The notes under the pieces: model-generated
Seen by the model: the letters and a program-made list of their open reading frames with translations, nothing else
What the model was told of the DNA's origin: nothing
Database searches by the model: none
Shown here: piece after piece, positions 16,918 to 45,299 of the stretch
How positions within the stretch are numbered: position 1 is the stretch's first letter
How the letters are laid out: each line of letters starts with the position of its first letter
DNA from: a virus
Virus genome (UHGV): UHGV-0133287
DNA: 45,624 nt
Reading direction: 5' to 3' (one strand)
Translations under genes and position numbers: made by a program

Positions 16918-18774
16918 CTATATGGTTACGCCTTTACTTATAACTCTACGGCGTCTTCTACGTATACCTGACGAGTTCTGCACATACACATTACCTCGCA
17001 TTTCCTGTTCGGCAAGCCAGTTAAAATTAGGGTTCAGAATTTCCATCGCAGCAGTTGCATAGTTACGGCAATCAAGAGGCTCGTTACGCTCGTAGACTTT
17101 CACCCACTTTTCTTTTGTCTGCCCATTTTTATATTCAAATATTTTTTTCTCTGATAATAATCCTTTAAAGTATTCGGTATCATATCCTCTGTCAGAATCT
17201 AATGGGAAATGCATATAACCAGGACCAGGATCATGTAGTTTAATTCTTGCCATGATGGTCCCTTTACCATCATCAACCCCCAAATTAAACAACATAGCAC
17301 CCACACGGTTATTATTACTTGGCTTTCCTATAAATGGTAAACCTACCCCACCACGCCCCCTGATAGAGTATATTCGCCTTGATTCTCTCGGCTTAGTAAA
17401 GCGATATACCTCTGTCGTAAAATGCCCACCAGAGTCAATACAAACGGAAGAAATCTGTAATTTTCTACCGTCACGGAATGACCAGCTACGGAGTAAGTAT
17501 TCATCAAGTTGTTTCCAGACAACATCTTGTGCGGGATCACCTGGGAATATTTTATATTCTATCCCCCATGACTCCTTACCTTTTCCCCAACCGACCAATT
17601 CACAAACTAAATACGTGTCCTGTACGTCAACACCAGCACTTAACAATAAAACATCATCTGGTAAAAACTCTTCAAACCTTATTCTGCGTTGCAACAAGTA
17701 TTCAGGATCGATATCGTCTTTAGCATCCTCTTTCCATGGCTCACCCAGCTTAAGGTTAATAAACTCCATTAATCCATTTTTATCGCGGTTTCTGGTTGCT
17801 TCCGTAAACTCTTCAACCAGCTCTGACAATGCAACCCACGGGGAGTAAAGACTGTTAATATGAAAACCAACAATACCTTTAATTCCAGTATGTTCAGCTA
17901 TCCATACCCCCTTCGCCAACCAATCAACGTCTGGTTTACCAGATCCGCGCATAATCCCGCCGCACTCACAGCACTCATATCTGGCCGTTTCCGGTAACGC
18001 CTCACCTGAATCGCTCTTATCCCATCTGACTTGCGACCATTTCATCACCTGCATGGTGCCACAACATGGGCAAGGAACATGGTAGTAACGCTGATCGGAG
18101 AGCTTAAACCACTTGTGGATTTTGCTCGTTTCCTCCAAAACAGGAGTAGAAACAAAAACTTTCTTACGATTATGAAAGTTGGTAGTACGCTGAATACCTA
18201 GTTTTAGTGGGTCGCCCTCCTGCGTCACACCGTAACGATCAATCTCATCAGCTAACAGTATTCGAATTGGCCTGGATGCAAGACCTGCTGGGGAATTAGC
18301 ACCAACAAGTGCTATATATCCACCAGCGTAATGCTTCATACGTATAGTCGTGCTGGACTTTTTGGCTGCACCGCGCCCCTCTTTCCCTTCATGCAGCTTG
18401 TGTTTCAAACCAGGGGAATATTTGAACGTCGGATCAATACGCTCTTTTGAAAAAGCCTCAGCCGCCTCTACCGTTGGATAAATCATCAACTGAGGAGATG
18501 GCTCCTGATCTGCAAAGTAACCCATAACATTTAGCTGTAATTCGGATTTACCAATTTGCGAGCTACATTGCATCACTACTGTTTCTGTATCAGCGTCACC
18601 AATAACATCCATTGGTTCACGCAAATATGGCACTCGGCTTGTACGCCACGGCCCTGGCTCTGGAGACGTTCCCGGCGCTACATGACGATACTTATCAGCC
18701 CATTCGGAAACAGTTAGCCGTGATTTAGGGCGAAGCGCACGGAAAAAAGCGGTGCTCCATACTGTTTCGCCCAT
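16918..18774 (-). CDS. terminase large subunit (lambda gpA-like)
   Basis: 618-aa ORF with an ATPase region containing a Walker-A-like QIGKSE and a C-terminal nuclease-sized domain; preceded by a small-subunit gene. Confidence 0.85.
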   Translation of the reverse strand: MGETVWSTAFFRALRPKSRLTVSEWADKYRHVAPGTSPEPGPWRTSRVPYLREPMDVIGDADTETVVMQCSSQIGKSELQLNVMGYFADQEPSPQLMIYPTVEAAEAFSKERIDPTFKYSPGLKHKLHEGKEGRGAAKKSSTTIRMKHYAGGYIALVGANSPAGLASRPIRILLADEIDRYGVTQEGDPLKLGIQRTTNFHNRKKVFVSTPVLEETSKIHKWFKLSDQRYYHVPCPCCGTMQVMKWSQVRWDKSDSGEALPETARYECCECGGIMRGSGKPDVDWLAKGVWIAEHTGIKGIVGFHINSLYSPWVALSELVEEFTEATRNRDKNGLMEFINLKLGEPWKEDAKDDIDPEYLLQRRIRFEEFLPDDVLLLSAGVDVQDTYLVCELVGWGKGKESWGIEYKIFPGDPAQDVVWKQLDEYLLRSWSFRDGRKLQISSVCIDSGGHFTTEVYRFTKPRESRRIYSIRGRGGVGLPFIGKPSNNNRVGAMLFNLGVDDGKGTIMARIKLHDPGPGYMHFPLDSDRGYDTEYFKGLLSEKKIFEYKNGQTKEKWVKVYERNEPLDCRNYATAAMEILNPNFNWLAEQEMRGNVYVQNSSGIRRRRRRVISKGVTI

Positions 18775-18779
18775 GAGGT

Positions 18780-19340
18780 TTATTCTTCCTGCTTAATAAA
18801 TCGGGATTCCTGGAGCGCCTGAAGCGCAAAATTAATCTCGTCTTCAATAATGCGTTCGATCTCCCTGGCTGTTTTGCCTTCACAACGGGGAGCTGCTCTT
18901 GGAGCAATACTAAATAAGCGGCTACGCAATTCATTAGCTGCCAGAAATGCATCATCCCTGACCGCATCTTTAGCGATGAGAGAGCCTTCCTTTTCTTCAA
19001 ATTCAAGGCGTTTCAGCTTTGCCTGATAAATTTTTTCTGCGGTCTTAGCCTTGTTGAATTGCACCGCAACACCGGAAGTACCACCAGCTAATCCGGCATC
19101 ATCAGCGGGTAACTCTGGTTGTTCCGAAGATATCCCATGCCCTCTTTTTCCATTTTCAGCAGATACCTCACGACCAACCTGTCGGCTCGCTTCATAAGCC
19201 GCACTAGCTTTATCAAAATCCAGCTTGCCGCTTTTCAGCACTGGAATGCGACCGGAACGACAGAGCTTCGTAACCATTGCCGGAGAAATACCTTTTCGGC
19301 GGGCAAACTCTGACTTACTGACGATGGCCATTACTTGCAA
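18780..19340 (-). CDS. terminase small subunit (Nu1-like, N-terminal wHTH)
   Basis: 186-aa ORF immediately upstream of the large subunit; N-terminus KSEFARRKGISPAMVTKLCRSGRIPV is a winged-HTH like Nu1. Confidence 0.55.
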   Translation of the reverse strand: MQVMAIVSKSEFARRKGISPAMVTKLCRSGRIPVLKSGKLDFDKASAAYEASRQVGREVSAENGKRGHGISSEQPELPADDAGLAGGTSGVAVQFNKAKTAEKIYQAKLKRLEFEEKEGSLIAKDAVRDDAFLAANELRSRLFSIAPRAAPRCEGKTAREIERIIEDEINFALQALQESRFIKQEE

Positions 19341-19921
19341 CCATTAGCAAGATACTGAACAAATCCCTCATGCGTTTCATGCGCGTCGTGGTACTGACGA
19401 TAAACATCCAGCAACAATGCAATTTCCATATCCGTCGCGGGAATACGTTCTTTATCAATAGCCAGGTACTTAATTTGAACAACAGGGGAAGAATTATCGT
19501 CTTCTTCCTGCGGCTGTTCATCGCTTAACATTTCGTCAAGCTCTGCATCATTAAACCCAAGCAGATCAATATCAAAATCATCATCCATTAACGCTTTGAC
19601 TTCTTCGGCCAGAAGCTGCATATCCCAGCCAGCATTTAAGGCCAGCTTGTTATCTGCAATCCTGTAAGCCTTCTTCTGTTTTTCAGAAAGGTTACTCAAC
19701 CGAATCGCTGGAACTTTATCCATTTCCAGAATTTCGGCTGCTGCAAGCCGCCCATGCCCCGCAATCAGTTCATTCTTTTCATCGATCAGCACAGGATTAG
19801 TGAAACCGAACTCACGGATACTGTTCACCAACTGTTCAACTTGCTCATCTGAATGAGTCCGTGAATTTTTGGCGTATCTGAGCAGCTTACCGACTGGTAA
19901 ATATTCGATTTTTAGAGCCAT
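19331..19921 (-). CDS. ParB-like nuclease domain protein (paralog A)
   Basis: 196-aa ORF with the ParB/Srx motif IAGHGRLAAA; overlaps the terminase small subunit start by 10 bp. Confidence 0.65.
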   Translation of the reverse strand: MALKIEYLPVGKLLRYAKNSRTHSDEQVEQLVNSIREFGFTNPVLIDEKNELIAGHGRLAAAEILEMDKVPAIRLSNLSEKQKKAYRIADNKLALNAGWDMQLLAEEVKALMDDDFDIDLLGFNDAELDEMLSDEQPQEEDDNSSPVVQIKYLAIDKERIPATDMEIALLLDVYRQYHDAHETHEGFVQYLANGCK

Positions 19922-20478
19922 TTTTTAACCGCCATAACACAACAGGTTAAAGAAAACTGTTTAACTTATTGATACTAAAAGAGAAAAATGACGATCTTTT
20001 TACTCATAAAAAATCACACAAACCAGCATAATCATCTGATTTTATTAAGTTTTTATAAGTAAAAAGGATCTTGATATGGTGTTTTGGTTAAAAGATTGGA
20101 TGTATTTGCATGATTTATAACGATTTTTATCAAAACAGCCTTACATTGGTTAAAGATCTGCGCGTATCTTGATGATCTAAAAGAAAATTCTCTACTTTCT
20201 TTTCACCATCACAAGCACAGCAAAAAATCACGTTTTCCCGATGTTTTTCAATGAGATGAGTAAATTTCTTTTACCGAAACTTTTAACCTAACTTTTTTCA
20301 CGTTTAGCTAGCCGAACATCGGGGTTCGAATGACCCGCATCCAACGCTTTTGGCCAGAAGGACCCAATTCTGCCGGACGATGAAACGATGCTCGTGCTCC
20401 CCCACAGACAGCCAGCGAGCGACGCTACAGAACACAGTGAATACACTCTGCATAACAACACCATCAACCACACGATGA

Positions 20479-21198
20479 TTAACGAGAGAAGGTCTTAGAA
20501 AGAATGTCATCAATAGCCTTTGTGACTTCATCAGCAAACGCATCCTCACCAGCACGCAGCGCCACGCCATGCCAATCAAGACGCTGCGAATAGTTAGGTT
20601 GCTGGATAAACGTAAGGATCAACGTAGGACGCCGCCCAACGCGCTGCCAGACGCCTGGTTGAAGCGGGTTACTTGTACCAGGTCGAACAACAAAAAACTC
20701 CGTAGGCTTGCCCTGACGGCGATTTTGATGCGCATCTCGCTGAACTCTTAGGCCAGATAAGACCTGCTGTAATTGCCCCCGCGAAATATTCCCGTATTTG
20801 TCCAGCTTTGCGCCGGGACCAGGAGCAAGCTGCCAGCCGTTAGGCAAATATCCACCAGCCCTTAGCGCCCCTTCTGAGCGTTTGTACTGTCGTTGGCCAC
20901 CTTCGATTTGCGGAGTCAACGTTACAGGGGCTGGCGTTCCTCCCCATTCACGAGCATACACAATGGCTGTAGGATCACTCTTCTTTGCGGCCAAAACGTA
21001 AGTAGAGTTCTGAATCCACGGCGTGGGCCTGTCAAATACCCGATTAATTTCATTCTTAATCGCAGCCTGAGAAGCCTTTGCCGTTCTGGTTGCCGCAAGC
21101 GCCATTGCGAACGGCAATTCGCGTTCTTCAAGGCGCTGGAGTTGTCGTTGAATATCCTGAGAAGAAAAATCCATCTTTATCTCAATTCTGTCAGCCAC
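20479..21198 (-). CDS. hypothetical protein
   Basis: 239-aa ORF between the ParB-methyltransferase fusion and the 556-bp AT-rich intergenic region; no motif recognised. Confidence 0.35.
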   Translation of the reverse strand: MADRIEIKMDFSSQDIQRQLQRLEERELPFAMALAATRTAKASQAAIKNEINRVFDRPTPWIQNSTYVLAAKKSDPTAIVYAREWGGTPAPVTLTPQIEGGQRQYKRSEGALRAGGYLPNGWQLAPGPGAKLDKYGNISRGQLQQVLSGLRVQRDAHQNRRQGKPTEFFVVRPGTSNPLQPGVWQRVGRRPTLILTFIQQPNYSQRLDWHGVALRAGEDAFADEVTKAIDDILSKTFSR

Positions 21199-21214: not shown

Positions 21215-22594
21215 CTACTTAATCAACGGCCGGAAAGCCGCCAGCACATCATCAGATCGTCCGATTGTTGAACCACCAGGCAACGGCAACTCAAACTCAA
21301 AACGAACAGCTTTCTCCAGACTCGCCCAACTAAGGGAATCATCGTTAATGACGTGCAAATACCAGCTCTTACAGTTGAATATTGACCGCTTAATCCTGAA
21401 ACCATGTACACGACACAACTGCTTCACTTCCTCATCAGAGTGAAACTTCTGGTAAAACCAGTGCCCCTTCCGGTACAACGCGGTAAAACCGTTATGATCA
21501 ATAAAATAAAGCCGGCTTTTGGAACTCGCCGCTTGTGTCTGCTTCAGGACTGTTTCCAGCTCTCCACGGCTACGGCCAGAAAAGAATATTGACCCACCAG
21601 CTTTACACAGCCCTTTCAGAACCGTCAGAACGGACCATTCAGCCTCGACACTATCGACCGAGTTCAAAACGCTATCGCAAATCACGTAGTCGTAACGCCC
21701 TCGCGTTTTTAAGTCGTCCACCAGCGTATCAATCATCCGGTTTGTTGCGGTCCTATCCAGAGTGTTTCCAGCGCCCTTACGGCGGAAAAGCTCAAGATCA
21801 TGCAGGTTATATCCCTTTGCCCTGAGCATTCGCGCGTAGTCTCCCTGACCCGAACCAAAATCAATTCCTCTTGGCGTCTTGGCAATGATCGGGAGGATCA
21901 ACGACTCATACAGGTTTGATTTCAGGCTGCCACCATTACGCAACCGCATAAGCTGCGCATACGTCTGGATGTATGTTGTTTTCTCCAGATGAGAATACTC
22001 AAATACACCATAAGTTTTATTCAGATAACTTTGGTATTTTTCCTTCTCAACATCAGGGATCACAAACACCGTTAGCGGTGTGCGCGTCATCTTCGCTGCT
22101 AATGCATACTGAGCACAGTGAATAACCTCGCCAGACTGCGTAGCAACACAACCACCCCACGGACCATACTTGATAACCAGTTCCGCTATGTTCTTTCGAA
22201 CATATGCCATTTTCGCGCGCATATTGCCTGAGATCTGGCTTGCCGATACCTGAACAAAACCATGCTTATCTTCCAGACCGGACACCCTGCAACGCTCATC
22301 TCCGCTATCAAAATCCGTTCCGTTATGCAGTTGGTTAAACCGTACTTCGTCGTATACCGTCGTTTCACAGGGCAACACATACACCGCAGCACGCGTTATT
22401 CCCAACTTACGTAGCGCCTTCGTCCTTTGGTGTCCCGCCACCAGCAAATCGCCGCGCACTATCAATGGCTTCACAAGCCCCAGCTCCCTGACGCTTTCCG
22501 CCAGCCTCGCAAGATCATCCTCACCGATAAAACGCGGGTTATATTCCGCACCGCGTAGGTGCGTTATGTCGTAATTGAGGTGAAGCATCAGCAC
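21215..22594 (-). CDS. ParB-like N-terminal domain fused to class-I SAM-methyltransferase-like domain
   Basis: 459-aa ORF. N-terminus has LVAGHQRTKALRKLGI (ParB/Srx GxxR motif). C-terminal half has a glycine-rich IDFGSGQGDYA (SAM-binding motif I-like) and YDYVICDSVLNSV. No DPPY/NPPY or PCQ motif seen, so it does not look like a classical DNA amino- or C5-methyltransferase. Confidence 0.55.
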   Translation of the reverse strand: MLMLHLNYDITHLRGAEYNPRFIGEDDLARLAESVRELGLVKPLIVRGDLLVAGHQRTKALRKLGITRAAVYVLPCETTVYDEVRFNQLHNGTDFDSGDERCRVSGLEDKHGFVQVSASQISGNMRAKMAYVRKNIAELVIKYGPWGGCVATQSGEVIHCAQYALAAKMTRTPLTVFVIPDVEKEKYQSYLNKTYGVFEYSHLEKTTYIQTYAQLMRLRNGGSLKSNLYESLILPIIAKTPRGIDFGSGQGDYARMLRAKGYNLHDLELFRRKGAGNTLDRTATNRMIDTLVDDLKTRGRYDYVICDSVLNSVDSVEAEWSVLTVLKGLCKAGGSIFFSGRSRGELETVLKQTQAASSKSRLYFIDHNGFTALYRKGHWFYQKFHSDEEVKQLCRVHGFRIKRSIFNCKSWYLHVINDDSLSWASLEKAVRFEFELPLPGGSTIGRSDDVLAAFRPLIK

Positions 22595-23211
22595 ACCTCC
22601 CCAGCCAGCAATGCGGATACAAATCCGATATAGCTGCCATTATCATCAACATAACGAGATACCGCGCAGTCAAAACGATCCGCTTCCTCATCCGTTGCCG
22701 GGATTTTATGACCTCCAAATGACAGGTACTGAACTTTTACGCCTGATTTGGCCTCATCCTTCTCAAATGGGATATCCATACCCTCTGTGTCATCGTAGAC
22801 CGCCGCACTCAATAAGTTATCCAGTTCGCGCTGAGTAAAACCAATTGAGTCCAGAGCAAAATCATCGGCCGCAAGATCTGCAAGCTCCGCGCTTAACAAC
22901 TCTTCATCCCAACCAGCATTCAGCGGAATACGGTTGTCGGCCAGACGATATGCCTTCTTCTGATTCTCCGTTAGCCCAGCCAGAACAATGCAGGGAACAT
23001 CATCCATCCCCAACTGAGTGGCCGCAGCAATTCGACCATGACCAGCAATTACAACGTTGTTCTCGTCTATCAGGATCGGATTAGTCCATCCGTACTCCTG
23101 TATGCTGGCAACAATCTGATCTACCTGCTCCACGGAGTGTGTGCGAGCGTTCTTTTCATAACCAATCAACACAGAAAGTGGTAAAGAAACCACATTAAGA
23201 TGTTTTGTCAT
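22588..23211 (-). CDS. ParB-like nuclease domain protein (paralog B)
   Basis: 207-aa ORF with IAGHGRIAAA; colinear with paralog A over about 200 aa (roughly half identical by eye); overlaps the downstream fusion gene by 7 bp. Confidence 0.65.
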   Translation of the reverse strand: MTKHLNVVSLPLSVLIGYEKNARTHSVEQVDQIVASIQEYGWTNPILIDENNVVIAGHGRIAAATQLGMDDVPCIVLAGLTENQKKAYRLADNRIPLNAGWDEELLSAELADLAADDFALDSIGFTQRELDNLLSAAVYDDTEGMDIPFEKDEAKSGVKVQYLSFGGHKIPATDEEADRFDCAVSRYVDDNGSYIGFVSALLAGEVC

Positions 23212-25260: not shown

Positions 25261-25377
25261 CGGGTTATCTCCGGTTTAACCAGGGCGGGTATCGCTCGGT
25301 TTCGGGTATAACCATAGGAAATTTTTTCCCATCCGTAAAGCGCTTTTTATATAAATCTATAATTATATAATTCTATG
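25261..25377 (-). promoter_or_regulatory. conserved promoter/leader cassette, copy A
   Basis: About 115 bp nearly identical to 32437-32557 and 41314-41430. In the minus-strand sense it carries an AT-rich palindromic block (TATATAATTATAGATTTATATAAA), a TTTAC(G/A)-N17-TATGGT promoter-like pair, then a ~45-nt leader ending GGAGATAACCCG-ATG. Confidence 0.5.
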
Positions 25378-25960
25378 CCACTTGCCAGAGAGCATCATGC
25401 AACTGGATACCTCCATTGCACTGGTTGCCCCAGCCATGCCAGCCATCAGGTAAATCACCGCGAGCAAACAGCTCAATACGAGGAACATCACCTAACAGCT
25501 TTACCAGCTTGTCACGGACCACATCAGGCTTCCGAGAATGCTCCAGACGAGGCGATGTAAACGACTGAATGATCCCCGCATCAAGACGGGTCGGCAGTTT
25601 GCCTTTTACCGCAAACAAGCAATCTTCACTGTTTGCACGAGTCATATGCCCCATCCCCATCACCAGCTTATCTGGTTGTCGGCTACCACATTTGTTCCAT
25701 GTGAAGCCCTTCATGGTCATCAGCCTGAATCCCCATGCTTTAACCACCAGCAACGCTTCTTCTGGCTGAGTCGGAACCCACCACATGGCCAACAAACACG
25801 ATTCAGGATTAGCAAGCTGCCAGACAGGAATACGAGCAATCTCCTCAGCTTTCATCGTTGGATACTTAAAACCAGCTCCACGATTCCCATCCTTACACTT
25901 GTCTTTGTATTCCCAGGGGGGATCTGCATAAATCAGATTAAACAATGCAATTGCCTCCAT
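25373..25960 (-). CDS. DNA N6-adenine methyltransferase, MT-A70 family
   Basis: 195-aa ORF with N-terminal LIYADPPWEY (the DPPW catalytic motif). Confidence 0.7.
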   Translation of the reverse strand: MEAIALFNLIYADPPWEYKDKCKDGNRGAGFKYPTMKAEEIARIPVWQLANPESCLLAMWWVPTQPEEALLVVKAWGFRLMTMKGFTWNKCGSRQPDKLVMGMGHMTRANSEDCLFAVKGKLPTRLDAGIIQSFTSPRLEHSRKPDVVRDKLVKLLGDVPRIELFARGDLPDGWHGWGNQCNGGIQLHDALWQVA

Positions 25961-26267: not shown

Positions 26268-26343
26268 TGGTGGCCCCTACCGGATTTGAACCGATGACCG
26301 TGCGATTATGAGTCGCCTGCTCTAACCACTGAGCTAAGGGGCC
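26268..26343 (-). tRNA. tRNA with CAU anticodon (Met or lysidine-type Ile2)
   Basis: 76-nt minus-strand sequence GGCCCCTTAGCTCAGTGGTTAGAGCAGGCGACTCATAATCGCACGGTCATCGGTTCAAATCCGGTAGGGGCCACCA folds by hand into a cloverleaf: 7-bp acceptor stem, GCTC/GAGC D-stem, CUCAUAA anticodon loop, TTCAAAT T-loop, encoded CCA. The 5' half resembles E. coli ileX as I recall it. Confidence 0.8.
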
Positions 26344-36389: not shown

Positions 36390-37058
36390 ATGGAGTCTCG
36401 ACAAATGACTATCTCTGTAGGTATTTTCAACGGAAAAGGCGGCGTAACCAAATCAACAATTGCCCGTGCTTTAGCAGTTGCTTATGCAAAGGCTGGCTGG
36501 AATGTATGCCTGATCGATATGGATGTGCTTAACGGAACGGTAACGCGTTGGGTACAACGCAGAATGGCCAACAATATCGAACCAGCAATCGCGGCGCAGC
36601 CGTGCGGCACACCATCACAAGTCCAGAAAATCATCGAATCAGAAGTATACGACCTGGTTATCGTCGATGGCGGTGCCTACGCATCTGAATCAGTACCGAA
36701 GCTATCTGAATTTCTGGATATGGTTATTTTGCCAACCCGATTCTCTACCGATGACCTGGAAACCACCGTTAACACTGCTCACGGCATCGTTAAAAAGGGT
36801 GTACCAATCAAGAAAATTTGCATGGTGTTTTCCGGCGCGGCTGAAAACGAAGCTGACTATATTGAAGCCCAAGAGTACCTGGCTAATACGCCATACTTTG
36901 TTGTCGATAAGTACATTCCCCACAAGCCAGCTCTGAGCAAAGCTCAGGATAAGGGCTTAAGCCTCATTGAGTGCTCATACGTTGCACCACGCAAAAAGGC
37001 AGACGACGTTATTCAGGGGATTATCAACCAGCTTGAGGCTCTGACTACTGCCGCGTAA
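36390..37058 (+). CDS. parA: ParA-family partition ATPase (small ParF-like)
   Basis: 222-aa ORF with a deviant Walker A (GKGGVTKST). Alternative start at 36405 (MTISVG...). Confidence 0.8.
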   Translation: MESRQMTISVGIFNGKGGVTKSTIARALAVAYAKAGWNVCLIDMDVLNGTVTRWVQRRMANNIEPAIAAQPCGTPSQVQKIIESEVYDLVIVDGGAYASESVPKLSEFLDMVILPTRFSTDDLETTVNTAHGIVKKGVPIKKICMVFSGAAENEADYIEAQEYLANTPYFVVDKYIPHKPALSKAQDKGLSLIECSYVAPRKKADDVIQGIINQLEALTTAA

Positions 37059-43585: not shown

Positions 43586-44563
43586 TTAATGTTGGAGTGA
43601 TTTCCAAGTCTTTCTTAACCTGTTATAACGCTGCTCAACGAGGGATCGTAAATATGCAAGGTCAGCTCCAGGATACATGCCATCAGCAAATTCCTGGCTA
43701 ACCTCTCTAGTGATTTGATGACGAAGTTCGGCCTCTCCCTTTTCCCGAACAAGACGCGCAGCTCTCTCCGCTGCTTTCTGTTTTGCCTTTATCTCTCTGG
43801 CCGTCTTCCTCTGACGCCATACATTCTCCATCTGCTCCTGAATAACAATACGCTTATAATCAGCCTCCGTTATCGCTTTTTTAAGCCGTTCGCTATTCTT
43901 CGCATTGAAGTAATTAAGTTTCTGGCTAACCGCACGTCTCCATGCTTGTTCAGTAATACCAACGGTTTCCAGCAGTTGATCACGAATCTCTATTTTCGCT
44001 GGCCAATACTGTTTATTCACCCGATCCCAGCGACGTTCATAATCAATAAAACCTAACGCTTTCAGTTGCGACAACGCCCTTGTACAGCGCGTTATAGACT
44101 TGTTCCCAGCTTCGGATACGGTAGACAGACCGCAAAAATCAGCCAACGCCTCAGCACTGGCCAGAACCCGCTTAGAAATGATGTTTACATGGTGCAAAAT
44201 CGCAGCAATCACAGCATTAATCGCCCGACGACGATGCTCGTTTATCCGGCGTTTCCGCTCTGACGGTTGATTAACGTAGAACGCAACCTCACACGTAAGA
44301 TCACGACCATTAATGCGCTGTAAAGCATCAGATAACACCAGCGGCAGCTTGTGCGTATGGTGCTTTGGAGGCTGGAACTCCGGCGACAAATTACAAACGT
44401 AAGCTGAACGTAGAGACGGCATTGGTCTATCCATATGTTCGCTCTTGCGTCCACGGAAAACCAACGTATAATGGGAGTTGTCGAGGCGCCCATGGTTAAT
44501 TGTTGGTTTTCCGTGGATGTCGCAAGAAGCCCGCAGATTTATCTGCGGGCTTTTTGTTTCCAT
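43586..44563 (-). CDS. repA: replication initiator RepA (IncFII RepA1-like)
   Basis: The central region (GLSTVSEAGNKSITRCTRALSQLKALGFIDYE) resembles IncFII RepA1 (...SITRATRALTFLSELGLITYQTEYD...) as I recall it. The true start may be the internal ATG at 44434 (MDRPMPSL, about 283 aa), because the first 43 codons overlap a putative antisense RNA and hairpin. Confidence 0.75.
   Translation of the reverse strand: METKSPQINLRASCDIHGKPTINHGRLDNSHYTLVFRGRKSEHMDRPMPSLRSAYVCNLSPEFQPPKHHTHKLPLVLSDALQRINGRDLTCEVAFYVNQPSERKRRINEHRRRAINAVIAAILHHVNIISKRVLASAEALADFCGLSTVSEAGNKSITRCTRALSQLKALGFIDYERRWDRVNKQYWPAKIEIRDQLLETVGITEQAWRRAVSQKLNYFNAKNSERLKKAITEADYKRIVIQEQMENVWRQRKTAREIKAKQKAAERAARLVREKGEAELRHQITREVSQEFADGMYPGADLAYLRSLVEQRYNRLRKTWKSLQH
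44479..44560 (+). ncRNA. candidate CopA-like antisense RNA to the repA leader
   Basis: Plus-strand promoter -35 TTGCGT (44445-44450), 16-bp spacer, -10 TATAAT (44467-44472), then about 80 nt ending in a perfect 12-bp hairpin AAGCCCGCAGAT-TT-ATCTGCGGGCTT plus TTTGTTT (44527-44560), antisense to the repA 5' region. Confidence 0.5.
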
Positions 44564-44744: not shown

Positions 44745-45299
44745 TCAATGATTCCCAGCCGGAAACCTGCGGTAAAGCGTGGATAAGGTAACATCGAAGA
44801 TAATCGCTATCCGCTTACGTGAAACACCATTCGCAATAAGCCTTCCGATCTGTTCCCATTGCTCTGGTGCCAGCTTTGAGCGGCGTCCTCCTATCCTGCC
44901 GTTAGCCCTTGCCACCGCCAATCCTGCACGCGTTCTTTCAATCATATTTTCCCGCTCCATCTCTGCGACTGCACTCAGCATCGTGTAGGCAAAGCGGCCA
45001 ATTGAAGTGCTAATTTTTATCCCTTCCGTAATCGAAATAAACTCAATGTCGTTTGATAAAAAATGGTTAAGTAAATCAACAAGATGAATCAGAGAACGCC
45101 CCATTCGGTCCAGCTTCCAGACAATAACCGTATCGCCCGGTCGTAACACCTTCAGTAGCTTATCAAGTCCTGGTCGTTTTGATTTAGCACCGGATATTTT
45201 ATCTTCAAAAATCCGGTCACATCCTGAACTCCTGAGCGCCTCCAGTTGTAATTCCAAATTCTGGTCAAAAGTTGACACCCTCGCATAACCATATTGCAT
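44745..45299 (-). CDS. serine recombinase, DNA invertase (Gin/Hin/Cin/Pin family)
   Basis: 184-aa ORF opening MQYGYARVSTFDQNLELQLEAL..., with the conserved catalytic Ser region and a C-terminal HTH; strongly resembles Gin. Confidence 0.85.
   Translation of the reverse strand: MQYGYARVSTFDQNLELQLEALRSSGCDRIFEDKISGAKSKRPGLDKLLKVLRPGDTVIVWKLDRMGRSLIHLVDLLNHFLSNDIEFISITEGIKISTSIGRFAYTMLSAVAEMERENMIERTRAGLAVARANGRIGGRRSKLAPEQWEQIGRLIANGVSRKRIAIIFDVTLSTLYRRFPAGNH

Follow-up and report, generated by a model that had tools for sequence, protein, structure and literature searches.

The feature examined here is part of a 45,624-nucleotide stretch of viral DNA (UHGV virus genome UHGV-0133287), which is referred to as the window throughout. 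A gap of 557 bp (positions 19922-20478) separates the start of a minus-strand open reading frame (ORF) for a ParB-like protein (at 19921) from the stop of a 239-amino-acid ORF (at 20479). Among the minus-strand structural genes, this is the largest gap, and the first-pass annotation was right to single it out as the largest noncoding interval of the structural half, immediately upstream of the ParB-like/terminase block. Its description of the gap as AT-rich holds for positions 19922-20323 (30.6% GC) but not for 20324-20478 (53.5% GC), such that the gap is composite when compared with the whole window (44.7% GC). No ORF of at least 40 amino acids is present within the AT-rich part. The GC-rich end (20366-20478, read on the minus strand) is a variable spacer between the stop of the 239-amino-acid gene and a heptamer resembling a cosQ element. 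In an alignment of relatives, this spacer has 35% identity with diverged members and carries large indels, and no terminator-like hairpin was found in it.

Directly downstream of the gap and on the same strand are genes for a PHROG-57 small terminase subunit (TerS), a large terminase subunit (TerL) of the lambda gpA family, and a portal protein of the lambda family. TerL (16918-18774, minus strand), the presumed cosN nickase and packaging motor, is ~28% identical to lambda gpA. It matches Pfam GpA_ATPase (E = 7e-76) and GpA_nuclease (E = 1e-84), both at E <= 1e-75. TerS (18780-19331, minus strand, 183 amino acids), which is presumed to be the cosB-binding protein, matches the small terminase subunits of PHROG 57 (E = 7e-42) and has an HTH-like match at its N-terminus; similarity to lambda Nu1 was not detectable by BLASTP (E = 0.4). 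As expected of a lambda-type cos site, the gap immediately precedes the terminase genes (terS and a terL of the gpA family) and is read on their strand, except that a gene for a 196-amino-acid protein with a ParB/Srx N-terminal domain (19331-19921, minus strand; Pfam ParB_N; PHROG 620, E = 1e-74) is interposed here. A ParB-like gene occupies the same interval between cos and terS in Vibrio relatives, and is absent there in the relatives L032, L033, and L035.

Upstream of the gap, in the minus-strand sense, are genes for the 239-amino-acid protein, a fusion of a ParB_N domain with a methyltransferase, and a second ParB/Srx protein. The site is in this way bracketed by three proteins with ParB/Srx N-terminal domains (19331-19921, 21215-22594, and 22588-23211, all minus strand). 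Two of these are paralogues of 196 and 207 amino acids with 48% identity to each other, and the third is the 459-amino-acid methyltransferase fusion. An MT-A70 methyltransferase is encoded at 25373-25960. The 239-amino-acid gene (20479-21198, minus strand), which ends just upstream of the site, has no Pfam match but matches PHROG 1924 (E = 2.5e-97). The label of that group, "minor tail protein," is surprising, given that the gene has DNA-modification genes as its neighbors and is located at the extreme right of the virion genome.

The window is ~97% identical to three plaque-isolated phages of Yersinia pestis, vB_YpM_39, vB_YpM_41, and vB_YpM_44 (~49 kb). The gap sequence was also matched in 72 of 5426 complete E. 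coli genomes (~1.3%), and all but one of these matches (71 of 72) are on plasmids, which range from roughly 31 to 94 kb, are mostly ~47-49 kb, and include the plasmid of strain ATCC 25922. Pfam and the RefSeq annotation of the ATCC 25922 plasmid identify an IncFII-family RepA (43586-44563) and, together with a small partner protein, a ParA ATPase (36390-37058). Also encoded are a RelE/ParE toxin, a Hin-type invertase (44745-45299) adjoining invertible tail-fibre genes, and a complete myovirus gene set. Because genes for plasmid maintenance are found beside a full set of myovirus genes, the element is a phage-plasmid, and the window holds the joined (circular) form of the region. It appears to be a circular IncFII-RepA plasmid, for whose family no description was found in the literature searched. 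The element also carries a tRNA gene (26268-26343, minus strand) with the anticodon CAT, which ARAGORN reports as tRNA-Met and which is annotated as tRNA-Ile in its RefSeq homologue on the ATCC 25922 plasmid; the discrepancy may reflect a lysidine-modified tRNA-Ile2.

The physical ends of the genome can be located from the points at which the genome records of relatives were opened, together with a coverage report for one Vibrio phage and an adapter fusion in one contig. On the minus strand, the sequence across the site reads GGGTCCTTCTGGCCAAAAGCGTTGGATGCG/GGTCATTCGAAC/CCCGATGTTCGGCTAGCTAAACG, where the slashes mark the two points of interest. The records of YpM_39 and YpM_41 (TerL >99% identical to that of the window) are opened at the first of these, GCG/GGTCATTCGAAC, and end in GCG. 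The record of YpM_44 (TerL likewise >99% identical) is opened at the second, GGTCATTCGAAC/CCCG, starting with CCCGATG and ending in GGTCATTCGAAC. These opening points are exactly 12 nt apart. The Yersinia phage records are flagged as circular, and no published method for determining their ends was found in the literature.

Similar positions are used in the more distant Vibrio phages, whose TerL proteins are 63-65% identical to that of the window. The PVP-XSN record starts at the homologous GGT, as does that of XM1, which has the 12-mer GGTGCTCGCGAC at both ends. For X29 and phi 2 the opening is located 11 nt beyond the first point, and for R19R it is 10 nt beyond. Thus, the right-hand end varies among the Vibrio records (10, 11, or 12 nt), and the values of 11 nt for X29 and 10 nt for R19R probably result from imprecise end calling. 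X29 is reported by its authors to have defined ends, on the basis of steep drop-offs of coverage in virion DNA (PMC5690320). In L033, an IMG/VR contig whose TerL is 58% identical, an Illumina adapter tail, gctcttccgatct, is fused directly to the homologous GGT. Fixed ends at this site are in this manner indicated indirectly by the records of YpM_39, YpM_41, and YpM_44 and of five Vibrio relatives, by the coverage of X29, and by L033. The 12-bp stagger is indicated by the Yersinia phage records and by the 12-nt terminal repeat of XM1.

It is highly probable, given these record ends, that cosN occupies positions 20324-20335 (minus strand) and yields 12-nt cohesive ends of sequence GGTCATTCGAAC. 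The nicks would fall between 20336 and 20335 on the minus strand and between 20324 and 20323 on the plus strand, and hence would leave 5' overhangs. This polarity is suggested by the presence of the overhang at sequenced or adapter-ligated ends: because it survives end repair and is present at both ends, it should protrude at the 5' side. A 13-nt stagger, which is suggested by the two-fold symmetry of cosN (GGGT...ACCC), was not adopted, as the record ends give 12.

Several observations on public records concern the same junction. Positions 1-13 of L033 (IMGVR_UViG_3300045988_118791, at the contig end) are 13 nt of untrimmed Illumina adapter, a contaminant with the merit of showing where the DNA physically ended. 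When viral contigs were scanned with a 14-mer for the right end of L033, the matches listed were all attributable to chance. The Vibrio records treat the cohesive end inconsistently (PP580404 for XM1, NC_024369 and KJ545483 for X29 and phi 2, and PP839371 for R19R), with that of XM1 carrying the 12-mer in duplicate plus an extra A, and cos is annotated in none of them. Among metagenome contigs, 16 pattern matches to the cos of the window lineage include 11 that are genuine, and all 11 read straight through the site, which fits the plasmid form and adds no evidence on ends. One metagenome contig (L171) stops 22 nt past the pattern, away from the nick.

The 12-mer GGTCATTCGAAC is invariant in relatives with ~80-100% TerL identity, and a single substitution (GGTCATTCGTAC) is present in L026, whose TerL is 77% identical. 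Other relatives carry unrelated 12-mers (GGTGCTCGCGAC, GGTCGGACGAAC, and GGTAGGCGCGGC) in the same frame and between conserved flanks. In three further loci (L032, L036, and L037, at ~2750-2950; TerL 56-61% identical), GCG/GGTCGGACGARC/CCCG is kept next to a degenerate cosQ (GGTTCCT, GGGTCCT, or AGGTACT); these loci lack a ParB-like gene ahead of terS, and at +47 they carry another motif, the palindromic TGTTCATGAACA.

No part of the gap is better conserved than that in which cosN is embedded. Across 21 distinct aligned relatives, with identity scored against the window as the reference, the block spanning cosQ and cosN is 83% identical, versus 35% further upstream. The heptamer GGGTCCT (20359-20365, minus strand) is located at -30 to -24 from the top-strand nick and occurs once in the 45.6-kb window, counting both strands. 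At the ends of lambda and N15, the same heptamer is found at -30 to -24 from the left nick, identical in sequence and in offset, and it is also present in Vibrio phage XM1 and in the loci L012 and L035. We take GGGTCCT to be the lambda cosQ, bp 48473-48479, an element reportedly defined at those positions by Wieczorek and Feiss in 2001. Because of this assignment in lambda and the conservation in both lambda and N15, the heptamer of the window is read as cosQ, and would be the signal that ends packaging at the downstream cos. The published description of cosQ is that of a highly conserved element of 7 bp (PMC4669245) that is positioned upstream of cosN and is needed to end packaging (PMC4669245, PMC4856287), and an element of this length and position is what the sequence of the window contains.

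Other landmarks are shared with lambda and N15, both of which have CG/GG at the left nick and TCGCTA ~25 nt inside. Between cosN and the first repeat of the array described below is the segment CCCGATGTTCGGCTAGCTAAACGTGAAAAAAGTTA (20289-20323, minus strand), which occupies the position of lambda I2 and is highly conserved in the alignment of relatives. Its CCCG...TCG.CTAG core is common to the Vibrio and metagenomic relatives, and the TCGCTA of lambda and N15 has approximately this offset as well.

The AT-rich part of the gap carries an array resembling cosB (19921-20288, minus strand), recognized by motif enrichment and conservation, in which the motif GGTWAAAAGA is present in approximately nine copies in both orientations. 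On the minus strand the copies are at 20279-20288, 20266-20275, 20198-20207, 19995-20004, and 19921-19930, and on the plus strand at 20148-20157 (a weaker copy), 20086-20095, 20058-20067, and 19945-19954. When up to two mismatches are allowed, the nine matches compare with 2.0 +/- 1.4 in dinucleotide shuffles, none of 1000 of which reaches nine, and with a maximum of five elsewhere in the window. In diverged relatives, columns of the alignment that fall within motif copies are 79% identical to the window, as opposed to 54% for the spacers (P = 2e-8).

Lineages were compared by an unbiased count of 7-mers, from which the most frequent one in the interval separating the genome end from the first gene was taken. 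With lambda as the positive control, this count returns CGTTTCC and recovers R3, R2, and R1 (three copies, the first at +53). The window yields GGTTAAA (five copies, first at +48), L026 yields GGTTAAC (eight copies, first at +47), the Vibrio phages yield GTTAACA (six matches at five sites, first at +50), and L033 yields GGTAACT (three copies, first at +48). The motif sequence therefore switches by lineage, and its first copy begins at +47 to +50 throughout, matching the R3 position of lambda, also in lineages whose gap is only 120-150 bp. In lambda and N15, R3 is located at approximately bp 48-65, and this spacing is critical (PMC9026076).

Two sites resembling those of the integration host factor (IHF) are present in the array. 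One, AATCAGATGATTA (20029-20041, minus strand), has an A/T-rich 5' flank and matches WATCARNNNNTTR. It is centered in a 31-nt imperfect inverted repeat (19996-20026 and 20036-20066) whose outer ends are two of the motif copies, an arrangement that recalls R3-I1-R2 of lambda. The element AATAAAATCAG..ATTATG is conserved in the alignment of relatives. The other site, TATCAATAAGTTA (19962-19974, minus strand), is a perfect match to WATCAANNNNTTR, to which only eight matches exist on both strands of the whole window, two of them in the gap. Repeats that begin ~48 bp from the nick, accompanied by an IHF-like site, are the sequence features of cosB. By analogy with lambda, we infer that the GGTWAAAAGA repeats are binding sites for TerS, and consider both the cosB assignment and the TerS assignment reasonably likely. 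Because L033 keeps its repeats without a ParB-like gene at cos, TerS is the most economical candidate for the protein that binds them. The array tolerates some loss, as YpM_44 carries a natural 90-bp deletion (window positions 20107-20196) that removes one motif copy and two GATC sites; because YpM_44 is viable, this interval is dispensable for plaque formation.

Along the minus strand, the cosQ-like heptamer is followed in turn by cosN, a short segment conserved among relatives, the cosB-like array, and the genes for the ParB-like protein, TerS, and TerL. In this orientation, the gap is very probably the lambda-type cos of a ~49-kb myovirus that is maintained as a plasmid. The first-pass annotation had proposed the gap as a candidate cos or late-control region. 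The former proposal is upheld by the ends of near-identical and of more distant genome records, which are located inside the very string that had been flagged, with the cosQ heptamer and the cosB-like array on its two sides. The latter gained no support from a scan of positions 19700-20700, which gave no sigma-70-like promoter and no terminator.

Other functions for parts of the gap deserve consideration. That the AT-rich portion serves mainly for late-gene control, with a promoter and operator for the operon of the ParB-like gene, terS, and terL and with the repeats as operators for a regulator, would suit its base composition, its location directly upstream of the packaging operon, and the presence of repeated motifs in both orientations, the last of which overlaps the start codon of the ParB-like gene. 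However, no sigma-70-like promoter was found where 1.8 were expected, in a scan whose scope excludes unusual or activator-dependent promoters, and no terminator separates the gap from the upstream genes on the same strand, so late control is without positive support. Furthermore, every lineage keeps its first repeat at a fixed distance from the nick (+47 to +50), which is a property of cosB (PMC9026076). We regard a mainly regulatory role as unlikely, and even this role would be compatible with a cos site, as cosN is in the gap either way. The repeats could alternatively form an element for plasmid maintenance adjoining cos, either as iterons of a replication origin or as a parS-type centromere for proteins with ParB domains. 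The element is indeed a plasmid, as attested by the E. coli matches, three proteins with ParB_N domains flank the gap, and repeat copies are more numerous in lineages where a ParB-like gene separates cos from terS (5-9) than in those where none does (0-3). An origin or centromere is nonetheless quite unlikely because RepA and ParA are encoded 16-23 kb away (RepA 23 kb away, and ParA with its own small partner), and repeats related to the array were not found near repA or parA. Moreover, L033 has three repeats of a related motif from +48 despite having no ParB-like gene at cos, and homologous arrays are present in Vibrio phages, among which X29 is reported to encode integrases (PMC5690320). The flanking ParB-like proteins may still bind the repeats.

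Two further explanations arise from sequence features that had been noted earlier. Phage P1 packages by the headful mechanism, and GATC hexamers flank its cut. All four GATC sites previously reported in the gap are present (starting at 19993, 20067, 20155, and 20174), although the last coordinate had been given 3 too high. Three of them are inside or abut motif copies (GGTTAAAGATC, AAAAGGATC, and GTAAAAAGATC), most relatives whose TerL is 87-91% identical keep those at 19993 and 20067, and the element encodes genes resembling adenine methyltransferases, all of which would suit a P1-type pac site where Dam methylation of GATC clusters governs cleavage and headful packaging. Yet the number is within chance (a 557-bp segment of the window holds 1.65 on average, 9% of such segments hold at least four, and base composition predicts 1.8), and the sites, at 160-340 bp from the cut, do not flank it. 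The ends are also defined, not permuted. The GATC sites at 20155 and 20174 fall within the deletion of viable YpM_44, and no GATC is present in the arrays of the Vibrio phages. P1-like control by Dam is therefore very unlikely, and GATC content, being neither enriched nor fully retained, is a poor cue for the site. The other feature is a string that had been likened to a tRNA T-arm. Its location was given correctly, as ggggttcgaatgaccc spans exactly 20321-20336 and contains the T-loop consensus GGTTCGAAT, but the string is read here as the cosN cut site. ARAGORN detects no tRNA at these positions, and Rfam searches at E <= 10 return nothing there; within the gap they give only three matches to miRNA families, far below threshold, at 19989-20076 over the inverted repeat. 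Because the resemblance is absent in relatives with other cohesive ends, which place unrelated 12-mers in the same frame between conserved flanks, it is best read as a coincidence of the cohesive end of the window lineage. A tRNA gene remnant, such as a former attachment site, is exceedingly improbable, given neither a match to a tRNA model nor conservation in relatives, and the element is a plasmid rather than an integrated prophage.

The interpretation as a lambda-type cos site can be evaluated further by comparison with known systems. The site resembles lambda cos in its order and orientation relative to terS and terL, in the identical GGGTCCT at -30 to -24, in CG/GG... at the left nick, in 12-nt 5' overhangs, in a TCG.CTA element after cosN, in a first repeat at ~+48 (the R3 position), in repeats of both orientations, an inverted pair of which frames an IHF-like site, and in a gpA-family TerL. 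It differs from lambda in that just 3 of the 12 cohesive-end bases match, CC rather than CG borders the right nick, the cosB-like array spans ~370 bp with approximately nine copies of a different motif (lambda cosB is 120 bp with three R sites), cos and terS are separated by a ParB-like gene, TerS has no recognizable sequence similarity to Nu1, and TerL shares only ~28% identity with gpA. In lambda-like phages the CG that flanks the nicks is said to be conserved (PMC4669245). The narrow group of Feiss et al. is characterized by a cohesive end near GGGCGGCGACCT, CG at both nicks, and a TerS homologous to gpNu1. With 3/12 cohesive-end identity, CG at the left and CC at the right nick, and an unrelated TerS, the window has a lambda-like layout but falls outside this group.

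Phage N15 similarly lives as a plasmid and has a lambda-type cos with GGGTCCT at the same offset. Its cos has a 12-nt 5' extension, and its cosB is simple, with a single R3 (PMC4669245), in contrast to the long, multicopy array of the window. N15 is also a linear plasmid, whereas the present element is apparently a circular IncFII-RepA plasmid. The Vibrio phages X29, phi 2, vB_VpaM_XM1, PVP-XSN, and R19R, for which a new family has been proposed (PMC11432961), have a homologous cos, GGGTCCTYC..GCG/GGTGCTCGCGAC/CCCG..TTTCGTCTAGCTA, followed likewise by a repeat array, a ParB-like gene, terS, and terL. They differ in the cohesive-end sequence, in the repeat motif (GTTAACAC, five sites in ~90 bp), and in a spacer of only ~140-150 bp from cos to the first gene. 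Neither annotation nor analysis of cos was found in two papers on this group (PMC5690320, PMC11432961). With P1 pac, the site shares the general character of a packaging recognition site with GATC motifs inside repeated elements, but here the ends are fixed, and the GATC motifs are remote from the cut, occur at chance frequency, and can in part be lost. Overall, the cosQ heptamer and the nick spacing of lambda persist although TerL is so diverged and TerS unrelated, while the array on the TerS side has been fully replaced. This pattern lends support to a division of labor in which TerL reads cosQ and cosN, and TerS reads cosB.

A plausible sequence of events can be proposed from these assignments. 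During lytic growth, TerS would bind the GGTWAAAAGA repeats, with IHF probably bending the AT-rich DNA, and this binding would position the gpA-family TerL at cosN. TerL would then introduce its two nicks 12 bp apart (20336/20335 minus and 20324/20323 plus) to produce the 5' GGTCATTCGAAC overhangs. Packaging would proceed toward decreasing window coordinates, through terS and terL, then the head and tail genes, and around the whole genome, and would stop at the next cos, recognized by way of the GGGTCCT located 24-30 bp before the nick. After injection, the ends would anneal and be ligated, restoring the joined form seen in the window.

The 196-amino-acid ParB-like protein may be an accessory factor in this process. 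The array is unusually long (~370 bp, approximately nine copies), and a ParB/Srx gene is wedged between cos and terS; because of this combination, it can be speculated that the protein is an accessory cos-binding factor that loads onto the repeats or spreads along them, or protects cos while the plasmid is resident, and that GATC within the repeats could make the assembly of terminase sensitive to methylation. We give these ideas little weight at present. If true, either shielding or GATC sensitivity would let a plasmid-prophage keep its own cos uncut until lytic replication.

No description of cos was found in the literature for this phage-plasmid family or its Vibrio relatives, and no mention of genome ends was found in the literature on the Yersinia phages, the E. 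coli prophage records, or the plasmid family. The presence of a cos site is expected biology, now mapped to the base, and current understanding is not overturned. The assignment fixes the physical ends, the cohesive-end sequence, and the packaging direction for a phage-plasmid family that is carried by the reference strain ATCC 25922, among other E. coli, and whose infectious relatives plate on Yersinia pestis, and should aid annotation and the orientation of records. Mapping of cos is also useful for predicting which DNA can be transduced by the particles of this family.
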